A DNA stretch of 43,504 bases from a virus (IMGVR_UViG_646862326_000012:1-43504), one strand, 5' to 3'; shown: positions 6,258-43,504, counted from the first letter of the stretch. Notes: a model not told the origin generated them from the letters alone. Translations and numbers: made by a program.

Positions 6258-6924
6258 TTTGCTGCTCCTCATCATATCGACCCTGCAAGGTCGGTTGGTT
6301 TCTCCACAAAACAGAGAAGAACACCTGCGGTGGCAGCCGCCCGGATGGATTGGGTTATGAGCCCGTCGTCCGGTGATGCCCTTCTCTGTTTTGTAAAAAG
6401 AGCGGTACCAGCCGGAAGCAAGTGTACAAACTGGTACCGCCAAAGCAGTGGCTGTTGTGGTGACCGGTGCTGATCTCCGGCTTGCGGTTATTTCAGACTC
6501 TCACGGGCGTTTAATTGCCCCGCCGAACAGCTCTTTTCCGCAATAGCTGCATGTCTTTCGCGCATCAGCCTGCGCATTCACCACAACGCTGAGAGCATTG
6601 CCGGTGTCCGAATCGAACGGACCTTTTCCCTGCCCAACCCTCCCATCTGAATGGGACTGTCTGGAATTGAACCAGCACTTATGCCTTGCTCGTCAATGCT
6701 CTCATCGTTGCGTCCTGGTCTCTTCCCAGGCGTCAAACCGGATCGCCACGCTGGTTAGGCGTCTTATCAGCATCCTCATTGACTTGCACATTCCGGCTAC
6801 CTGGTTTGTTTGCCCGAGCAAGGAGTGGATTATCCCCTTTAACGTCCCCAGACCGCTAACGACGCATGTGCCATACGCCGTGTTACAACCAAATTTTGTT
6901 TGAATCTTGCCTGTCTCATGTTTC

Positions 6925-8562: not shown

Positions 8563-9395
8563 ACAGTTTAACGGCAAATAACCGTTTGTCGCAACAGCTG
8601 GTGGTCAGCGTCGCTGAACACCTGTTGTTACGGCATGAATGCAGATTACCAAATCACATGGCTGTAAGTAACCACAGAGAACTTTACCTGACTGTGGGGG
8701 GCGAGTTGTGCAGGAACTTAACCGCTGGTTTCGTGACGGAAGAGGGCTTTATGTCCATGTTATTCGTTGGGAGCCAGAAACACAGCGCGTTATCTATCTT
8801 CGCAAAGACTACCCGCATGAGTGCTTTAGTCCTTTGTGGAAATTCAGGCGTGATTTTGTTGAGTGTGAAGGACCACCAGCACATTGATTCTGCCATTCCG
8901 GGACGTTACACTGTTCAGGCACCTTATAAAGCGGGTGTCGGGATTGGCGTCCTGGAATTGCATACGGCGACAATTGGCGCGTTAGCGTCTTTTTTGTTGC
9001 TACAACTCAGCTATACCCAAATTATGGTGGGCTGGGTGGGGGCACCGAAAGGTGCGCCGGTTTCCGTATGCGCCGGTTACGCCAACCCTGCTCAGTTCAC
9101 CACCAGCGAAATTGGCGTTTCCGGTGGTGGAAGTTATCCATTGCATACGGAGGCTGCCATCATGGCTACTGTCCCAGCCCTCTCTCGTCTGAATGATGAA
9201 GACTTACATAAACTCAGTTATGTAACAACTGCACTACATGCTCTGCGCAAGGTAACTCTTTCGGATCCGCAGGCGCATCAGGTTTTGGTAGAAACCCTTC
9301 TTAACTTGCAGGCTGAACGTATTCGTCTGGCGGATAAGGCTAATTTTCATATTCACCGTCTCCTGAATATCAGCGGAGGGCATCGTCATGCTTAA
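8559..9395 (+). CDS. Hypothetical protein (278 aa)
   Basis: ORF translationally coupled to both neighbours (ATGA overlap upstream; the next gene's ribosome-binding site lies in its 3' end). No motif recognised; composition is unusual. Confidence 0.4.
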   Translation: MNSLTANNRLSQQLVVSVAEHLLLRHECRLPNHMAVSNHRELYLTVGGELCRNLTAGFVTEEGFMSMLFVGSQKHSALSIFAKTTRMSALVLCGNSGVILLSVKDHQHIDSAIPGRYTVQAPYKAGVGIGVLELHTATIGALASFLLLQLSYTQIMVGWVGAPKGAPVSVCAGYANPAQFTTSEIGVSGGGSYPLHTEAAIMATVPALSRLNDEDLHKLSYVTTALHALRKVTLSDPQAHQVLVETLLNLQAERIRLADKANFHIHRLLNISGGHRHA

Positions 9396-14164: not shown

Positions 14165-14917
14165 ATGAACCTTGAATCCTTACCGAAATATTACTCCCCA
14201 AAATCTCCAAAATTGAGCGATGACGCACTGGCGACAGGCTCGGGTGGTTTAACAATTACGGATGTGATGGCTGCGCAGGGGATGGTGCAGTCGAAAGCAC
14301 CGCTTGGTTTTGCCTTATTCCTGGCAAAAGTTGGTGTTCAGGACCCTCAGTTTGCGATTGAAGGTCTGCTCAATTACGCGATGGCACTGGATAACCCGAC
14401 ATTGAACAAATTGAGTGAAGAAAACCGGTTACAGATCATCCCTTACCTTGTGAATTTTGCCTTTGCTGATTATTCCAGGTCTGCGGCAAGTAAGGCTCGC
14501 TGTGAGCATTGTGCAGGTACGGGATTTCATAATGTATTGCGCGAAGTGGTGAAACACTCCAGAAGCGGGGAGTCTGTTGTCAAGGAAGAGTGGGTGAAGG
14601 AACTATGTCAGCATTGTCATGGTAAGGGAGAAGTCAGCACAGCGTGCAGAGGGTGTAAGGGTAAAGGTATTGTACTGGATGAGAAAAGAACCCGGCTTCA
14701 TGGTGCGCCTGTTTATAAGATTTGTGGGCGTTGCAATGGAAACCGGTTTAGCCGTTTACCAACCACACTGGCGCGGCTTCATGTCCAGAAGCTGGTACCA
14801 GACCTGACGGATTATCAGTGGTACAAAGGATATGCAGATGTCATTGATAAACTGGTTACAAAGTGCTGGCAGGAAGAAGCATATGCAGAGATACAATTGA
14901 GAAAGGTGACAAGATAA
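14165..14917 (+). CDS. Late-gene antiterminator Q (Zn-finger type)
   Basis: 250 aa with repeated CxxCxGxG zinc-finger-like motifs. Located immediately upstream of a strong terminator and the lysis cassette. Confidence 0.75.
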   Translation: MNLESLPKYYSPKSPKLSDDALATGSGGLTITDVMAAQGMVQSKAPLGFALFLAKVGVQDPQFAIEGLLNYAMALDNPTLNKLSEENRLQIIPYLVNFAFADYSRSAASKARCEHCAGTGFHNVLREVVKHSRSGESVVKEEWVKELCQHCHGKGEVSTACRGCKGKGIVLDEKRTRLHGAPVYKICGRCNGNRFSRLPTTLARLHVQKLVPDLTDYQWYKGYADVIDKLVTKCWQEEAYAEIQLRKVTR

Positions 14918-15022
14918 ATGGTTTTCGCCGAAGATAACGACATGATGCTTGCATTTTTCAAAAAATATGGATAAGATTTTCCCAACGATGGGCTTTGTAT
15001 GTCTACCGTTGATAAGATTTAA

Positions 15023-15050
15023 GAACCCGCCGCTGAGCGGGTTTTTTTGT
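15023..15050 (+). terminator. Rho-independent terminator (tR'-like) downstream of Q
   Basis: ACCCGCCGCTGAGCGGGT hairpin followed by TTTTTTT. Confidence 0.65.
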
Positions 15051-15197
15051 GCCTGATGTCTCATGAAACTATGAAATGGATTGGTGCGTTAAACATTTTT
15101 TCTTATTATCTTTTAGATTTTGGAGAGATGGGTAACGTCTGTATTCCAGAAACTCGATGAATATTTAATAAATTAGTTTCAATGATGCTTCTAGGTT

Positions 15198-15623
15198 ATG
15201 AGTGTAATGAAAAAGGTATTAATAGCAGCGATAGGTTTTTGTTTAGTTGGTTGTGCAGGTATGAAATTACCTGAGTATTCGCAAGTTAAAGCAAGTCCGT
15301 ATTATACAGATTGCCGTGCGTTTGCCATGGATGTTTATAAAAATGATGGATACAGCAAAATTGCGAAAACCACTATCCTTAGCATGGATGATGTGAAGGC
15401 TAGATATATTGTGACAGGGTGTGTAGTTGCTATGGGGAAAAACACTGTAGAGGAAATTAAAGCTGATCTCTCTGCTAAAGGGAGTTCTTTTGGGCTTATC
15501 AGTGGTGCTTGTTCTAGTGCTGCATGTCGGGTTGATGTAGAGCAGCAAATGAACGCTTATATACTTGGTAGTTATTATGCTGCAAATAAAAAATTCCCGG
15601 ATAAAATGAAAGCAGAGTTTTAA
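15198..15623 (+). CDS. Lipoprotein moron (141 aa)
   Basis: Signal peptide with lipobox LVGC (Cys19). AT-rich. Flanked by two near-identical intrinsic terminators between Q and the tRNA cluster. Confidence 0.7.
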   Translation: MSVMKKVLIAAIGFCLVGCAGMKLPEYSQVKASPYYTDCRAFAMDVYKNDGYSKIAKTTILSMDDVKARYIVTGCVVAMGKNTVEEIKADLSAKGSSFGLISGACSSAACRVDVEQQMNAYILGSYYAANKKFPDKMKAEF

Positions 15624-15701
15624 GCAAACCTTGTTTTCGATTATATGCCGAAGATAAATGTTAGTAACGGCATAATAAGTAAATATATAGCTGTGATAGC
15701 A

Positions 15702-15726
15702 ACCCGCCACTGAGCGGGTTTTTTGT
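15702..15726 (+). terminator. Rho-independent terminator after the lipoprotein gene
   Basis: ACCCGCCACTGAGCGGGT hairpin plus T-run; near-duplicate of the terminator at 15023-15050. Confidence 0.65.
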
Positions 15727-15843
15727 ACCTGTAAACTTGGTGCAGTACAGTAAACACGCTGGTGGACAAGTGAAAAACAGCATTTAATCAGGCCTTCTGA
15801 AGATATTGCAGTATTAATTCCGTAACGTTATTATTCTGCGCGC

Positions 15844-15919
15844 GGCCCTTTAGCTCAGTGGTGAGAGCGAGCGACTCATAATCGCCAGGTCGCTGGTTCA
15901 AATCCAGCAAGGGCCACCA
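15844..15919 (+). tRNA. tRNA with CAU anticodon (Ile2/lysidine-type, ileX/ileZ-like; could be scored as Met)
   Basis: 76-nt cloverleaf folded by eye: acceptor GGCCCTT/AAGGGCC, anticodon loop CTCATAA, T-loop TTCAAAT, 3' CCA. Close to E. coli ileX as remembered. Confidence 0.8.
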
Positions 15920-15920
15920 A

Positions 15921-15990
15921 CTGCCACTAGCTCATCAGGAAGGAGCTTCAACCCTTTAAGTGCGAGGTTCGAGTCCCCGGTGGCGGTCCA
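15921..15990 (+). pseudogene. Degenerate tRNA-like element (possible tRNA-Arg remnant)
   Basis: Acceptor stem, D-arm, T-arm (GGTTCGAGTCC) and CCA are present, but the anticodon arm is too short to fold canonically. ACCCTTTAAGT resembles the argU anticodon region with deletions. Confidence 0.35.
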
Positions 15991-15992
15991 GT

Positions 15993-16068
<76 letters not shown>

Positions 16069-16071
16069 TAT

Positions 16072-16146
<75 letters not shown>

Positions 16147-16276: not shown

Positions 16277-16437
16277 AGCACTCTGCTTTTATTCCGATTA
16301 ACTGTGGGTGGTTTGTTGGATAGAGTGCTTCCCTTACTGTATATATTGTTTCGCCCGTTTTTGCGGGTTTTTCTTTTCAAATCCCTTTCATTTCTCAGTG
16401 TAAAACTACGCCATCCGTTATTTGCGGAGGTGAGGCT

Positions 16438-16653
16438 ATGAAATCCATGGACAAAATTTCAACGGGCATTGCCTACGGCACCTCCGCAGGTAGTGCCGGG
16501 TACTGGTTTTTACAGTTGCTCGATAAAGTCACGCCCTCACAGTGGGCGGCAATAGGTGTGCTGGGTAGTCTGGTATTTGGCTTGCTGACGTATCTGACAA
16601 ACCTTTATTTCAAGATTAAAGAAGATAAGCGTAAGGCTGCGAGAGGTGAATAA
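16438..16653 (+). CDS. Class II holin (phage 21 S21-type)
   Basis: 71 aa; near-identical in pattern to S21 ([24 protein letters not shown]...), two TM segments, charged C-terminus. GGAGGTGAGG ribosome-binding site. Confidence 0.9.
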
Positions 16654-17150
16654 TGTCACCATCATTACGCAAGGCTGTTGCTGCTGCTATTGGTGGTGGG
16701 GCTGTTGCTATAGCGTCTGTGCTCATCACTGGTCCAAGTGGTGACGATGGTCTGGAAGGTGTCAGCTACATACCATACAAAGATATCGTTGGTGTATGGA
16801 CTGTATGTCACGGACACACCGGAAAAGATATCATTCCCGGTAAAACGTATACCGAAGCAGAATGCAAAGCCCTCCTGAATAAAGACCTTGCTACGGTCGC
16901 CAGACAAATTAACCCGTACATCAAAGCTGATATACCAGAAACAACACGCGGCGCTCTTTACTCGTTCGTTTACAACGTGGGCGCTGGCAATTTCAGAACA
17001 TCGACGCTTCTTCGCAAAATCAACCAGGGCGATATCAAAGGTGCATGTGATCAACTACGTCGCTGGACATATGCTGGCGGTAAGCAATGGAAAGGGCTGA
17101 TGACTCGCCGTGAGATTGAGCGTGAAGTCTGTTTGTGGGGGCAGCAATGA
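16653..17150 (+). CDS. SAR endolysin (R21-type lysozyme)
   Basis: 165 aa; N-terminal Gly/Ala-rich signal-anchor-release segment followed by a lysozyme-like domain. Overlaps the holin stop. Confidence 0.9.
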
Positions 17151-17584
17151 GCAGAGTAACCGCGATTATTTACGCTCTGGTTATCTGCATCATCGTCTGC
17201 CTGTCATGGGCTGTTAATCATTACCGTGATAACGCAATCGCCTACAAAGAGCAGCGCGATAAAGCCACATCCATCATCGCTGACATGCAGAAGCGTCAAC
17301 GTGATGTAGCAGAACTCGATGCCAGATATACAAAGGAGCTTGCTGATGCTAATGCGACTATCGAAAGTCTCCGTGCTGATGTTTCTGCTGGTCGTAAGCG
17401 CCTGCAAGTCTCCGCCACCTGTGCAAAGTCAACGACCGGAGCCAGCAGCATGGGCGATGGAGAAAGCCCAAGACTTACAGCAGATGCTGAACTCAATTAT
17501 TACCGTCTCCGAAGTGGAATAGACAGGATAACCGCGCAGGTTAACTACCTGCAGGAATACATCAGGACGCAATGCCTTCGATGA
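17147..17584 (+). CDS. Rz i-spanin
   Basis: ATGA overlap with the endolysin stop; N-terminal TM segment then coiled-coil-rich periplasmic domain. Confidence 0.8.
17319..17522 (+). CDS. Rz1 o-spanin (embedded in Rz, +1 frame)
   Basis: Lipobox VVSAC followed by a Pro-rich segment ([13 protein letters not shown]), fully inside Rz. True start is probably an internal Met (17346 or 17352). Confidence 0.65.
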
Positions 17585-17854
17585 TAGCGATAGTTTTACT
17601 CATCATCCTTCACATCTGGCTCTGTAGACAGGGTGGTGCTCACTTCTGGAGTGAATCCAGATTAAACATCTCATTGCTGATGCTTGATATTGAGCATCTG
17701 GCGCGCGGTAAGGGGCAGCGTTGAGATAAGAGTCAGTTCATTACAAAGCCTATCTACGGATGGGCTTGATAATGGTTTGTTAACCTCGCTTAGCACGAAC
17801 GGCATTACCGCAGGCATTCACTGAGTGCCTGCGATAATACTTTTGATAGTCAGA

Positions 17855-18046
17855 TTACAGGATAAAAATTAGATCGAAGTAATAACCTCCTTCCATTGTG
17901 ATTTTTCCTTCACGGTATAACTCGCAAAGAGAATCGAAAGTTTCTTCATGATTATCGTTCTCAGGGAACCATGCTGGCTGGAAAGCAACTTTTCCTTTTT
18001 CATTCATTACTTTTAACATATAAGGGATAATATATTGTTTCTTCAT
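17855..18046 (-). CDS. Hypothetical small protein (63 aa), AT-rich moron
   Basis: ORF on the opposite strand between Rz and cos. AAGAGG ribosome-binding site 7 nt upstream of the ATG. Local AT-rich composition. Confidence 0.5.
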   Translation of the reverse strand: MKKQYIIPYMLKVMNEKGKVAFQPAWFPENDNHEETFDSLCELYREGKITMEGGYYFDLIFIL

Positions 18047-18214
18047 AAAAAAACCTCTTATTGTGATTGAAAAGTTTTACGTGCCATTTAGAGTACTTGA
18101 AGTCACTTCTCATCTTTAACGACCTCCGCAAATACATCGAAAATAATATTCACTTTGTGATTTGTAGTTACCTTGGAAAGGTACATGACTAACGAGAATT
18201 ACTTCATCATTGAC

Positions 18215-36823: not shown

Positions 36824-37423
36824 ATGCGTAAATTATGTGCTGTTATTCTGTCCGCAGTAGTCTGGCTGGTTGCCGCTGGTACGCCAGCGAGCGCAGCAGA
36901 GCATCAGTCCACACTAAGCGCCGGGTATCTTCAGACCCATACTGATATGCCAGGCAGCGATGACCTGAAGGGCATTAACGTGAAATACCGTTATGAATTT
37001 ACGGACACGCTGGGGCTGGTGACGTCATTCAGCTATGCAGGAGACAAGAATCGCCAGCTTACCCGTTACAGCGATACCCGCTGGCATGAAGATTCCGTTC
37101 GTAACCGCTGGTTCAGCGTGATGGCGGGGCCGTCTGTGCGCGTGAATGAATGGTTCAGCGCGTATGCGATCGCGGGTGTGGCTTACAGCCGTGTGTCGAC
37201 TTTTTCCGGGGATTATCTTCAGGTGACCGACAACAAGGGGGATACGCACGATGTGCTGACCGGAAGTGATGACGGTCGCCACAGCAACACGTCTCTGGCG
37301 TGGGGGGCTGGCGTGCAGTTTAACCCGACCGAATTCGTGGCCATTGATATTGCTTATGAAGGTTCCGGCAGTGGCGACTGGCGCACTGACGGTTTCATCG
37401 TGGGTGTCGGTTATAAATTCTGA
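36824..37423 (+). CDS. lom: Lom-like outer membrane beta-barrel protein (Ail/Lom/OmpX family)
   Basis: 199 aa; signal peptide (AAGTPASA); alternating amphipathic beta-strand pattern ending in ...VGVGYKF, typical of the Ail/Lom family; same position as lambda lom. Confidence 0.85.
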
Positions 37424-41604: not shown

Positions 41605-42981
41605 CTATGATATTCCTGAGATATCCTCTTCAAGCTCTTTTACTGATTTCGCAATTTTAAATTTAAACTTCCTCTCTATTTCACTATTGCTAAGTTTTTT
41701 TTCCTTCTCTTTACCTATCCACATAGAAACAAGTTCTCGTTTCTGAGATATATGTAAATTATCAAAGTTAGGTATGTATTTAAAAGTCTCCGCTCTACCT
41801 CTGCGGAGTTCATAGAAAGTTTTAATTAAAGACTTTGGTTTTATTTCTGATGAAAGGCCGAATCGGCGGATAAGATTATTGATAGTATGATTAACAGAGC
41901 GAAGTTGAGCTGTTGAGGTTATTTGTGAGAAGTACGATACCCATCCCAATCGTTTACCTTCAAACACACATCCCGTAATTCTGAGATTTAGTTTCCACTG
42001 ACAATATGCAACAGCTCGTTCTTTATCACGCTTACTTTTAGCTTGTAGTAGAGCGTGCCTGTATGCAGTAAAAATCCTTGCTAAAGATGACTCAAATCTA
42101 AGAATGCTCTCATGTTTTATCAATAATTCTCGATTTTCTATGTGGTATCCCAAAAAGTTAAAACTTTCATCCAAGCTGCCTACTTTGGATTTTGAGTTCT
42201 CTTCATTTAATGGATGTGGGTTTAAATTTAATGATTGAAGCTTATCAATGATATGAGAAGCTATTTTTGTTGCTTGATATTTTGGTGTTAAAATAAGAAT
42301 GTCATCAACGTATCGCATGTACCATATGTCATGCATTTTATTGATTTCATCATCAAAATTAGATAGTGATATTTCAGCTAAAATGTTTGATATCGCTAAT
42401 CCCTGAGGTACTCCTCTGGTATTATTCGGGATACCTTTGCTTCCTGTTGTTCCACTTACAGTAGGCACGATTAATGATGATGTTATTAACTGTCTAATTT
42501 CTTTTTTTCTAATTTTATTTTTTATTGCATTAATTATCAATTTATGTTCAATTGAAGGATAGAAACTTTTAAGATCTATTTTTGCATATTCAGCATAAAG
42601 ACTGCTGTTTAATGCTTCTTTCAATGAGTCAATTACTGTATGTGGTAGTTTTAATCTGGAGTTAGGATATATTTCCGTAAGGCATTCACAGAGAGCTCTA
42701 AGAGTAATTCTGTCCCTAGCAGTTGGTATGGAAATCTGTCTGGGTGTAGAGTTAGCGCCTTTAGATATTAATTTTTCTTTATATGCTGTAAATTTGTAAT
42801 TGCCAGAGTTAACCTTTTCAAAAATGAAAGCGATCTCATTTTTTATTGTCAAATCAAGTTTTGATGGGCGAATCCGATCTATGCCAATCGCTCCTGATTC
42901 TTTGATTTTTTCAGTGTATACTTTTAGAAGGTTTTTTTTCGAGAATGACTTTTTAAAAATTCTGCTTGCAGTCATAGTCAA
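41605..42981 (-). CDS. Reverse transcriptase (defence-associated / Abi- or retron-like RT) with approx. 200-aa C-terminal extension
   Basis: 458 aa, AT-rich. RT motifs readable in order: IPTARDRITLRAL (motif 1/2), IDLKSFYPSI (motif A aspartate), GVPQGLAISNILAEISL (motif B), YVDD at residues 224-227 (nt 42301-42312, motif C), FLGYHI (motif E-like). Unclassified C-terminal region. Confidence 0.85.
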   Translation of the reverse strand: MTMTASRIFKKSFSKKNLLKVYTEKIKESGAIGIDRIRPSKLDLTIKNEIAFIFEKVNSGNYKFTAYKEKLISKGANSTPRQISIPTARDRITLRALCECLTEIYPNSRLKLPHTVIDSLKEALNSSLYAEYAKIDLKSFYPSIEHKLIINAIKNKIRKKEIRQLITSSLIVPTVSGTTGSKGIPNNTRGVPQGLAISNILAEISLSNFDDEINKMHDIWYMRYVDDILILTPKYQATKIASHIIDKLQSLNLNPHPLNEENSKSKVGSLDESFNFLGYHIENRELLIKHESILRFESSLARIFTAYRHALLQAKSKRDKERAVAYCQWKLNLRITGCVFEGKRLGWVSYFSQITSTAQLRSVNHTINNLIRRFGLSSEIKPKSLIKTFYELRRGRAETFKYIPNFDNLHISQKRELVSMWIGKEKEKKLSNSEIERKFKFKIAKSVKELEEDISGIS

Positions 42982-43504
42982 TCCAAAGATATATTAATGG
43001 GAGTATATAAAGGGCGGCAGTAGTAAATATTCGAAGTAATATCCATAAAATAACAATTATTTTTTCTTTTTGTGTGGGGATCCTCGTCGTAAGTCCAACT
43101 TGAGTTACCCTTGAAATTTTATCATCTATGTCACGGTGATTCTCAACCTCATTGAGCAAATTAAAATATTTTTCTTTCTGTTCAAGAGTTAACTGTTGAC
43201 TGGTGGTAATGTCAAAATAGAGTCGCTGTAGTGCAATATAATTCCTTCTCATGGCTATTGCTCGACCACGAAAATCTAGGTTAGATACGATCAGCGAAAT
43301 ACCCAGTAGGGCCACCGAAAGTATTGCCGCAACGATATCTGTGTTATCTCCTAGAACTTTTGGAAATCGCAACGTTACAATTGAAAGTACCGCACTCAAT
43401 ATAGCATACCAAACGAGGATAAATTGAGAGTGCTTTTCAAGCCATTCTAGTCGATGGTGCGCTTGGATACGGGCTTTATATGTAAACCAAATATTGTCAT
43501 GCAT
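42953..43504 (-). CDS. Multi-pass membrane protein upstream of and overlapping the RT (possibly truncated at the window edge)
   Basis: At least 183 aa, with 3-4 predicted TM helices (FILVWYAILSAVLSIVTL; IVAAILSVALLGISLIVS; IIVILWILLRIFTTAALYILPLIYLWI). Its 3' end overlaps the RT start by 29 nt, so co-transcription is likely. The ORF reaches the last base of the window, so the true start may lie beyond it. Confidence 0.6.
   Translation of the reverse strand: MHDNIWFTYKARIQAHHRLEWLEKHSQFILVWYAILSAVLSIVTLRFPKVLGDNTDIVAAILSVALLGISLIVSNLDFRGRAIAMRRNYIALQRLYFDITTSQQLTLEQKEKYFNLLNEVENHRDIDDKISRVTQVGLTTRIPTQKEKIIVILWILLRIFTTAALYILPLIYLWIDYDCKQNF

Follow-up and report, generated by a model that had tools for sequence, protein, structure and literature searches.

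Why should a small AT-rich gene stand between two nearly identical transcription terminators in the late control region of a lambda-like prophage? The question is raised by IMGVR_UViG_646862326_000012:1-43504, a lambda-like Escherichia coli prophage of 43,504 nucleotides; this whole stretch of DNA is referred to as the window. An initial annotation had described a lipoprotein moron between the antiterminator gene Q and a tRNA cluster, exactly where Shiga toxin (stx) genes were said to sit in Stx phages, and had proposed that it is a cassette inserted by recombination between terminator copies. Our analysis leads, with moderate confidence, to the following answer: the locus is a 677-bp moron behind the late promoter pR′ and its terminator tR′, an insulated, orphan lipoprotein gene of the Enterobacterales that is gained and lost at the terminator repeat. 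The cassette comprises an AT-rich leader of ∼150 nt, the lipoprotein gene, a 77-nt trailer, and a second copy of the terminator, arranged as follows.

15024 to 15048, plus strand: terminator 1, at the left edge of the cassette (a −14.1 kcal/mol hairpin with a U7 tail; an annotated terminator in SfV and Ayreon).
15049 to 15197, plus strand: AT-rich leader with a candidate promoter, TTGGTG (15081 to 15086), a 17-nt spacer, and TATTAT (15104 to 15109); it can be aligned to the Salmonella and Hafnia cassettes.
15198 to 15623, plus strand: prolipoprotein gene, 141 aa, with an alternative start at 15207 (phrog_4748, unknown function).
15624 to 15700, plus strand: 3′ untranslated trailer, which contains GCCGAAGATAA.
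15701 to 15724, plus strand: terminator 2, a copy of terminator 1 that closes the cassette on the right (hairpin of −12.0 kcal/mol; found by a consensus terminator scan).
15725 to 15765, plus strand: right flank common to the empty-site alleles; SfV and at least 196 E. coli genomes have this sequence right after their one terminator.

The two near-identical terminators had been placed correctly to within 1 to 2 nt by the initial annotation. The segments at 15024 to 15047 (AACCCGCCGCTGAGCGGGTTTTTT) and 15701 to 15724 (AACCCGCCACTGAGCGGGTTTTTT) match at 23 of 24 bases, loop included, with a spacing of 677. The 22-mer core of the terminator occurs exactly twice in the window, against zero copies expected from 100 shuffles in which up to three mismatches were allowed. 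Both copies consist of a 7-bp G+C-rich stem, a 6-nt loop, and 6 or 7 U residues, and both are intrinsic terminators as judged by sequence and folding. The consensus scan listed terminator 2 and missed terminator 1, which on our reading may reflect an extension of the stem with A-U and G-U pairs that consumes the T-tract.

Near-identical phages either carry or lack the cassette, with breakpoints that map within the repeated terminator. Strains N1, N21, and N44 share the 951 bp around the cassette in the window (14900 to 15850) at 100% identity, and phage PhiR47_1 matches them at 99.2%. Phage SfV has the same Q and pR′ at 96% identity with one terminator, whose left flank is that of terminator 1 and whose right flank is that of terminator 2 beyond ∼12 nt. 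A synthetic junction representing precise deletion of the cassette was found at full length and 99 to 99.5% identity in at least 196 complete E. coli genomes, with an upper bound of 603 genomes given by a shorter deletion junction. The cassette interior is present in 214 of 5426 complete E. coli genomes (∼4%), always in the chromosome and at 95 to 100% identity. Among the matches listed for IMG/VR, 22 join the pR′ left flank through one terminator to the right flank that follows terminator 2, nine join the pR′ left flank to the start of the cassette, and 12 join the end of the cassette to the post-terminator-2 flank. A polymorphism in the hairpin loop locates the exchange more closely. Terminator 2 always has A at this position and terminator 1 has either G or A; six empty-site contigs combine the G loop of terminator 1 with the right flank of terminator 2, as expected for crossovers inside the hairpin. 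The proposal that the cassette junctions lie in the terminator copies is thus borne out by empty-site alleles in which a lone terminator is flanked as copy 1 is on its left and as copy 2 is on its right, and the comparison of the Q-to-S interval (from Q to the holin gene) across related prophages, which had been suggested as a check, reveals gain and loss of the cassette.

The same terminator is a recurrent mosaic joint, because a right-hand module meets many left flanks there, and the Q-to-S interval is a cargo hotspot. The right-hand module, an orf47-like gene with a DNA methylase gene, is joined at the terminator to at least six other left flanks, which include other Q types, a 214-aa open reading frame (ORF), and an ORF6N-like protein. 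The 22-mer core is found in at least 120 IMG/VR contigs, about half of them with unrelated flanks. Further cargo in the interval was seen in E. coli IAI39 (locus L132, 3762 to 5519), where a ClbS/DfsB-family gene and an ISEc53 transposase gene lie downstream of the cassette and before the DNA methyltransferase gene. A review of phage morons, “The moron comes of age,” describes them as independent transcription units spread by horizontal transfer (PMC3594210). The present cassette has three of the four features by which a moron was to be recognized, the fourth being a promoter of its own that is active in the repressed prophage: it is present or absent in collinear relatives, it ends in its own downstream terminator, and its base composition is atypical, with a G+C content of 0.33 to 0.40 over 15000 to 15700 versus 0.46 to 0.56 in Q and 0.48 to 0.53 in the tRNA region.

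What does the cassette encode? The lipoprotein gene is real and under strong purifying selection, with a ratio of nonsynonymous to synonymous substitution (dN/dS) of 0.09 to 0.22 and synonymous sites near saturation among homologs from E. coli, Salmonella, Citrobacter, and Buttiauxella. Together with the ORF and the base composition, this ratio upholds the initial call of a 141-aa lipoprotein gene with an LVGC lipobox in an AT-rich stretch. The protein begins MSVMKKVLIAAIGFCLVGC, and its signal has the layout of a lipoprotein, with a basic n-region (MSVMKK), a hydrophobic core (VLIAAIGFC), and the lipobox, whose Cys19 is encoded at 15252 to 15254. The lipobox Cys is present in every homolog, including the most distant (P0015, LSGC), in which it is misplaced by the aligner. 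It is invariant together with Cys39, Cys75, Cys105, and Cys110, even in a relative at 32% identity, a pattern that fits an exported protein with two disulfide bonds, which probably stabilize it. Export and lipidation at Cys19 are predicted from these motifs; residue +2 is Ala in this protein and Ala or Ser, not Asp, in close homologs, for which the Lol rule predicts sorting to the outer membrane. The AlphaFold model (pLDDT 72) is all-alpha, and the product would be a periplasmic six-helix protein. Two other ORFs were considered and set aside: the start codons of an annotated 37-aa ORF at 15047 to 15160 (phrog_37626) are not kept in Salmonella or Hafnia, and the substitution pattern across an antisense 147-aa ORF at 15267 to 15710 fits the plus-strand frame instead.

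Searches of Pfam, NCBIfam, and PADLOC returned no match for the lipoprotein, and PHROGs returned phrog_4748 (“unknown function”) alone. Approximately 35 clusters of homologs were recovered from a collection of 5.8 billion proteins and a profile search of 1.84 billion representative proteins; all are annotated as hypothetical and all come from Enterobacterales. No known exclusion, serum-resistance, or defence protein was among the matches listed in fold searches, and comparison with Bor/Iss, Cor, Llp, TraT, and the PADLOC systems revealed no sequence or fold likeness. A literature search yielded nothing specific on the lipoprotein or on bracketing by duplicated terminators.

The genomic settings of the homologs fall both inside and outside phage late regions. 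The gene stands directly downstream of all three Q families, which is a notable recurrence: PF03589 in the window, DUF1133/PF06530 in Salmonella enterica (locus L004 and eight IMG/VR contigs), and PF06323 in Hafnia alvei (L138 and L139). These correspond to the Q-lambda, Q21, and Q82 families, respectively. In L004 the Salmonella cassette has the same terminator ahead of it and a related but diverged one behind it. The Hafnia cassette is flanked by an 80-nt direct repeat at 94% identity that holds identical terminators (AAACCCGCCTTTTGAGCGGGTTT). All late-region copies of the cassette keep a terminator on both sides, a trait not shared by other cargo found there, for example the 214-aa ORF of L102. 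In S. enterica subsp. diarizonae (L007 and L008) and the related L006, the gene occupies a Rac-like early region between vapBC and kilR/recE, and homology is limited to the coding sequence. SSU5-like phage-plasmids of ∼110 kb from Citrobacter, Klebsiella, Cronobacter, and Buttiauxella carry the gene, as do Edwardsiella plasmids. In these replicons a conserved 99-aa ORF, absent from the lambdoid versions, begins ∼10 nt after the lipoprotein homolog (L011, 4441 to 4740; L005, 5446 to 5745; L135, 5466 to 5765). None of these three partners has a Pfam match; the copy inspected, from Buttiauxella (L005), has a lipoprotein-type signal and Cys residues. In four phage-plasmid contigs (including L191), a 35-nt repeat at 94% identity, which contains a hairpin (AACCCGCCAAATGGCGGGTT), borders the gene pair on both sides. 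Serratia carries the gene at two ordinary sites in the chromosome, away from any phage genes, and one of these sites is fixed across several genomes; a scan of genome contigs returned three loci, all from Serratia. The initial annotation had held that its reading would be refuted if the homologs were core periplasmic proteins with no exclusion or virulence phenotype, and the chromosomal, non-phage homologs in Serratia go part of the way in that direction.

With these settings in hand, the nature of the repeat can be considered. The likeness of the terminators could be due to chance or convergence around a spurious AT-rich ORF, given that CCCGC-stem terminators are common and that the core recurs with unrelated flanks in IMG/VR. 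The match of 23/24 bases including the loop against zero expected, the 80-nt Hafnia repeat, the empty-site alleles, and the dN/dS values refute this account, to which we assign a negligible probability. Alternatively, the cassette could be a self-contained mobile unit that attaches at the terminator and travels in circular form, relying on hairpin-targeted or integron-like recombination instead of general homologous exchange. Direct repeats that contain hairpins in four lineages and are near-identical within a lineage, as well as precise single-copy empty sites, are what such a cassette would leave. We consider it very unlikely, however. No recombinase adjoins the cassette in any locus examined, and neither an IntI-type integrase nor a fixed attC site accompanies it; repeats of variable length (24, 35, and 80 nt) better fit staggered or duplicative insertion or homologous exchange; the hairpins belong to an ordinary, very common terminator type; and the 214-aa ORF at this site in L102 has no such bracketing.

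Two routes to the preferred reading, a moron gained and lost at the terminator repeat, can be envisaged. Homologous exchange at the repeated terminator would explain the precise empty sites. Staggered duplicative insertion, in which the surviving insertions kept a terminator on each side, would fit the lineage-specific repeats of 24, 35, and 80 nt and the inclusion of resident leader sequence in the Hafnia repeat. A further short repeat was observed in the window: the 11-mer GCCGAAGATAA occurs at 14927 to 14937, just past the stop codon of Q, and at 15646 to 15656, just past that of the lipoprotein gene. The pair may be what is left of an older, longer duplication that covered the post-Q region; its score was reached in 16 of 1000 shuffles, which is marginal. 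A longer duplication in E. coli, relating the post-Q to the post-lipoprotein region, was rejected since the support was likewise marginal (the 11-mer, and a gapped score reached in 59 of 2000 shuffles).

How might the cassette be transcribed? The control elements immediately upstream are as follows.

14165 to 14917, plus strand: Q antiterminator gene, 250 aa, Q-lambda family (PF03589, E = 4e-53; phrog_127).
14949 to 14992, plus strand: pR′ homolog, identified by alignment to lambda pR′, with −35 element TTGCAT (14949 to 14954), −10 element TAAGAT (14972 to 14977), and pause element AACGAT-GGG (14984 to 14992).

The Q protein is 33% identical to lambda Q (tblastn), and the 106 nt from the Q stop codon to terminator 1 can be aligned to lambda pR′. 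The layout in the window is TTGCAT, a 17-nt spacer, TAAGAT, six bases, and AACGATGGG; the lambda counterparts at the same spacing are TTGACT, TAAATT, and CAACGATGGG. In lambda, AACGAT is the −10-like element behind the promoter-proximal sigma-70 pause where Q loads, and its first A is the transcription start. By homology, this segment would function as a pR′ promoter with a start near 14984. The locus has the lambda type of late control, in which a PF03589 Q is followed by a lambda-like promoter with a pause element and then by a terminator. Terminator 1 lies ∼40 nt past AACGATGGG, ∼65 nt downstream of the pR′ start, and is the equivalent of tR′, where a pR′ transcript made without Q would stop at ∼65 nt. 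With terminator 1 as the tR′ equivalent, the lipoprotein gene would be the first ORF of the late transcript, downstream of tR′.

The leader may contribute a promoter of its own. It spans ∼150 to 165 nt and can be aligned across E. coli, Salmonella, and Hafnia despite saturated synonymous sites in the gene. Two hexamers are conserved, (T/C)TGGT(G/A) and TAT(T/C/G)AT, separated by 17 to 18 nt of spacer whose sequence is not conserved. The relatives have TTGGTA-18-TATCAT and CTGGTG with TATGAT, the latter with a spacer of ∼18 nt as judged by eye. The match to the sigma-70 consensus is 8/12 in the window (15081 to 15109), below the threshold of the scan, and 9/12 in Salmonella. Conserved hexamers around divergent spacers suggest a weak sigma-70 promoter at 15081 to 15109, from which the lipoprotein gene could be expressed independently of pR′.

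These elements can be combined into a scheme. In the lysogen, constitutive pR′ transcripts would stop at terminator 1, and a low level of lipoprotein would come from the weak leader promoter, from leakage through terminator 1, or from both. Terminator 2 would then keep leader and leak transcripts out of the tRNA and holin/endolysin genes. On induction, RNA polymerase modified by Q would pass both terminators, and the lipoprotein would be the first late product; such read-through is the natural route of late expression because the cassette lies downstream of a lambda-like pR′. A constitutive promoter upstream of holin/endolysin genes would need a terminator downstream, which may be the reason for the two-sided bracketing. 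The recurrence of this bracketing behind three antiterminator families is indirect evidence that cargo placed in the late region upstream of lysis genes must be insulated.

Of what use is the lipoprotein? We tentatively propose a role at the envelope that helps the carrier cell, for example in superinfection exclusion or immunity. A benefit to the carrier cell is likelier than a role in lysis because the gene behaves as a stand-alone accessory envelope gene in phages, phage-plasmids, plasmids, and a chromosome. The opposing view is that the lipoprotein is purely a late, Q-dependent helper of lytic growth, which masks receptors or modulates lysis, and that terminator 2 is a by-product of its arrival. 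T5 Llp, for instance, masks receptors and thereby prevents the loss of progeny to the debris of lysed cells. The gene is the first ORF after pR′-tR′ behind three Q families, it lies just upstream of the lysis genes, and the scan found no strong promoter in its leader, all of which a late helper would predict. Homologs are located in non-late sites, however, namely, the Rac-like early region by vapBC/kilR, phage-plasmid replication regions, Edwardsiella plasmids, and the two Serratia sites. Nor is the cassette associated with the C-terminal type of the receptor-binding protein J: phages with the same J C terminus mostly lack it, and phages that carry it have varied tails, so a link to J was rejected. 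Since the presence of the cassette does not follow the J type, masking of the phage's own receptor is improbable, and we regard the late-helper account as a whole as unlikely.

A host-fitness or virulence factor acquired by lysogenic conversion, conferring serum or envelope-stress resistance in the manner of Bor/Iss and unrelated to conflict between phages, is a further candidate. Prophages that encode the predicted outer-membrane lipoprotein occur in pathogenic E. coli, among them Stx2c and Stx2k phages and those of APEC-named strains, and chromosomal copies are fixed at one locus in several Serratia genomes. Its lack of likeness to Bor/Iss or any other Pfam family argues in the other direction, and this candidate appears to us somewhat less probable still than a late helper.

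The position of the cassette relative to stx is best seen against the genes that follow it. Around the cassette, the gene order is RusA, KilA-N, and DUF968, then Q, the cassette, three tRNA genes, and the P21-type holin, lysozyme, and Rz genes.

15844 to 16146, plus strand: tRNA cluster with a CAT anticodon tRNA, tRNA-Thr(TGT), and tRNA-Gly(TCC), plus a tRNA-Lys pseudogene.
16353 to 16376, plus strand: third terminator-like hairpin, upstream of the holin gene (consensus terminator scan).
16438 to 17584, plus strand: lysis cassette of S (P21-type holin), R (lysozyme), and Rz (PF04971, PF00959, and PF03245), with Rz at 17135 to 17584.

In Stx phages the toxin genes occupy the gap that separates the tRNA genes from the holin gene; the cassette precedes the tRNAs. 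The gene map of phiSTEC1575-Stx2k reads Q, terminator, lipoprotein, terminator, two ORFs, tRNA-Met/Arg/Arg, stx2A, and stx2B. The same cassette is carried by 15 Stx2c phages (all that were found), mEp460, and Ayreon, and it is ∼1.6 kb upstream of stx where both occur. The cassette is not a substitute for Shiga toxin; it coexists with stx, since both are present in Stx2k and Stx2c phages. The position in the window that is equivalent to stx, from the tRNAs to S, consists of ∼290 nt of non-coding DNA with the hairpin at 16353. The initial placement of the gene between Q and the tRNAs, which is also downstream of a lambda-like pR′, therefore holds, and its identification with the stx locus does not.

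Several other features of the window were recorded. The tRNA at 15844 is annotated as Ile in RefSeq, and ARAGORN reads its CAT anticodon as Met. The tRNA-Lys pseudogene (∼15921 to 15991, plus strand) lies between this tRNA and tRNA-Thr and has a 7-nt deletion and two substitutions relative to the tRNA-Lys annotated in PhiR47_1; neither ARAGORN nor Rfam called it. A second AT-rich island (17850 to 18140; G+C content, 0.30 to 0.33), between Rz and the small terminase subunit gene, resembles a moron insert and has a 63-aa ORF on the minus strand, for which Pfam and PADLOC gave no match. The interval separating J from the side tail-fibre gene holds an Ail/Lom-family outer-membrane protein gene (36824 to 37423, plus strand; PF06316, E = 5e-121), a conversion gene of the classical kind within the same prophage. 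At the right end of the prophage (41605 to 43504, minus strand), past the tail-fibre genes, a defence-associated reverse transcriptase of class UG17 (PADLOC RT_UG17, E = 6e-159) adjoins a partial SLATT-domain partner (RTasSLATT, E = 8e-57). In the early region, isrK (58.9 bits) and the C4 antisense RNA (80.7 bits) are adjacent at 8919 to 9107 (plus strand), both above the Rfam gathering score.

A published small RNA was also considered as an identity for the cassette. sRNA-17 is a 193-nt, ArcA-modulated “intergenic” small RNA of an mEp460-like prophage in E. coli K1 RS218, and the full 193 bp are present in 60 of 1676 genomes, a proportion near the ∼4% of the cassette; hypothetical-protein genes were removed in that study before intergenic regions were defined (PMC7719688). 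This identity was rejected, as sRNA-17 maps elsewhere: its start matches the early region of the window exactly at 6402 to 6431 (plus strand).

The gene merits attention as one that is common, conserved, and uncharacterized: it was seen in ∼4% of the complete E. coli genomes, in each of the 15 Stx2c phages found, and in an Stx2k phage. Because the cassette lies between pR′ and stx2 in such phages, its two terminators and any promoter within it belong to the control region of toxin and lysis. It is also an unusually clear example of the gain and loss of a moron at a short repeated terminator, and its two-sided terminators recur behind three unrelated antiterminator families. A role of the lipoprotein in exclusion or immunity, if borne out, would establish a new family of such factors. 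A more speculative extension, which we think improbable, is that a terminator hairpin serving as both insulator and recombination joint marks a distinct kind of mobile cassette across the three Q families and phage-plasmids, with cargo that founds a family of envelope-acting exclusion or immunity lipoproteins, also between pR′ and stx2.

Compared with known systems, the cassette shares with integron cassettes the single-gene unit, the hairpin-forming repeats, and precise gain and loss; it differs from them in that it is not accompanied by an integron integrase, its hairpins are terminator-like rather than attC sites, and its repeat length varies by lineage. T5 Llp, Cor, TP-J34 Ltp, and T4 Spackle are small exported proteins that counter incoming phage at the envelope, two of which (Ltp and Spackle) are all-helical. 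The cassette product is likewise predicted to be a small exported phage protein and, by its model, all-helical like these two, but none of the four is among the fold-search matches listed, PADLOC gave no match, and the cassette is unlinked to a particular J receptor-binding domain. Lambda Bor and plasmid Iss offer the parallel of a (predicted) outer-membrane lipoprotein encoded in a prophage near the lysis genes, a candidate conversion factor, although they have no sequence similarity to the cassette lipoprotein (no Pfam match). The bor gene lies downstream of Rz on the opposite strand and has its own promoter.

Other cargo of the Q-to-S interval includes the porin gene lc/nmpC of PA-2/DLP12 and the csp genes of Qin. 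The slot of stx1/stx2 differs from that of the cassette, which extends from tR′ to the tRNAs, in that stx follows the tRNAs. The closest counterparts are the morons of the HK97/HK022 type, which are also single accessory genes of atypical composition, present or absent in collinear phages, with their own intrinsic terminator. Here, by contrast, the downstream terminator copies the resident tR′, the bracketing recurs in other lineages, and an own promoter is weakly indicated. As a moron in the Q-to-S cargo region the cassette follows a known arrangement; its lipoprotein belongs to no characterized lipoprotein, exclusion, or defence family, and the bracketing by duplicated terminators sets it apart.
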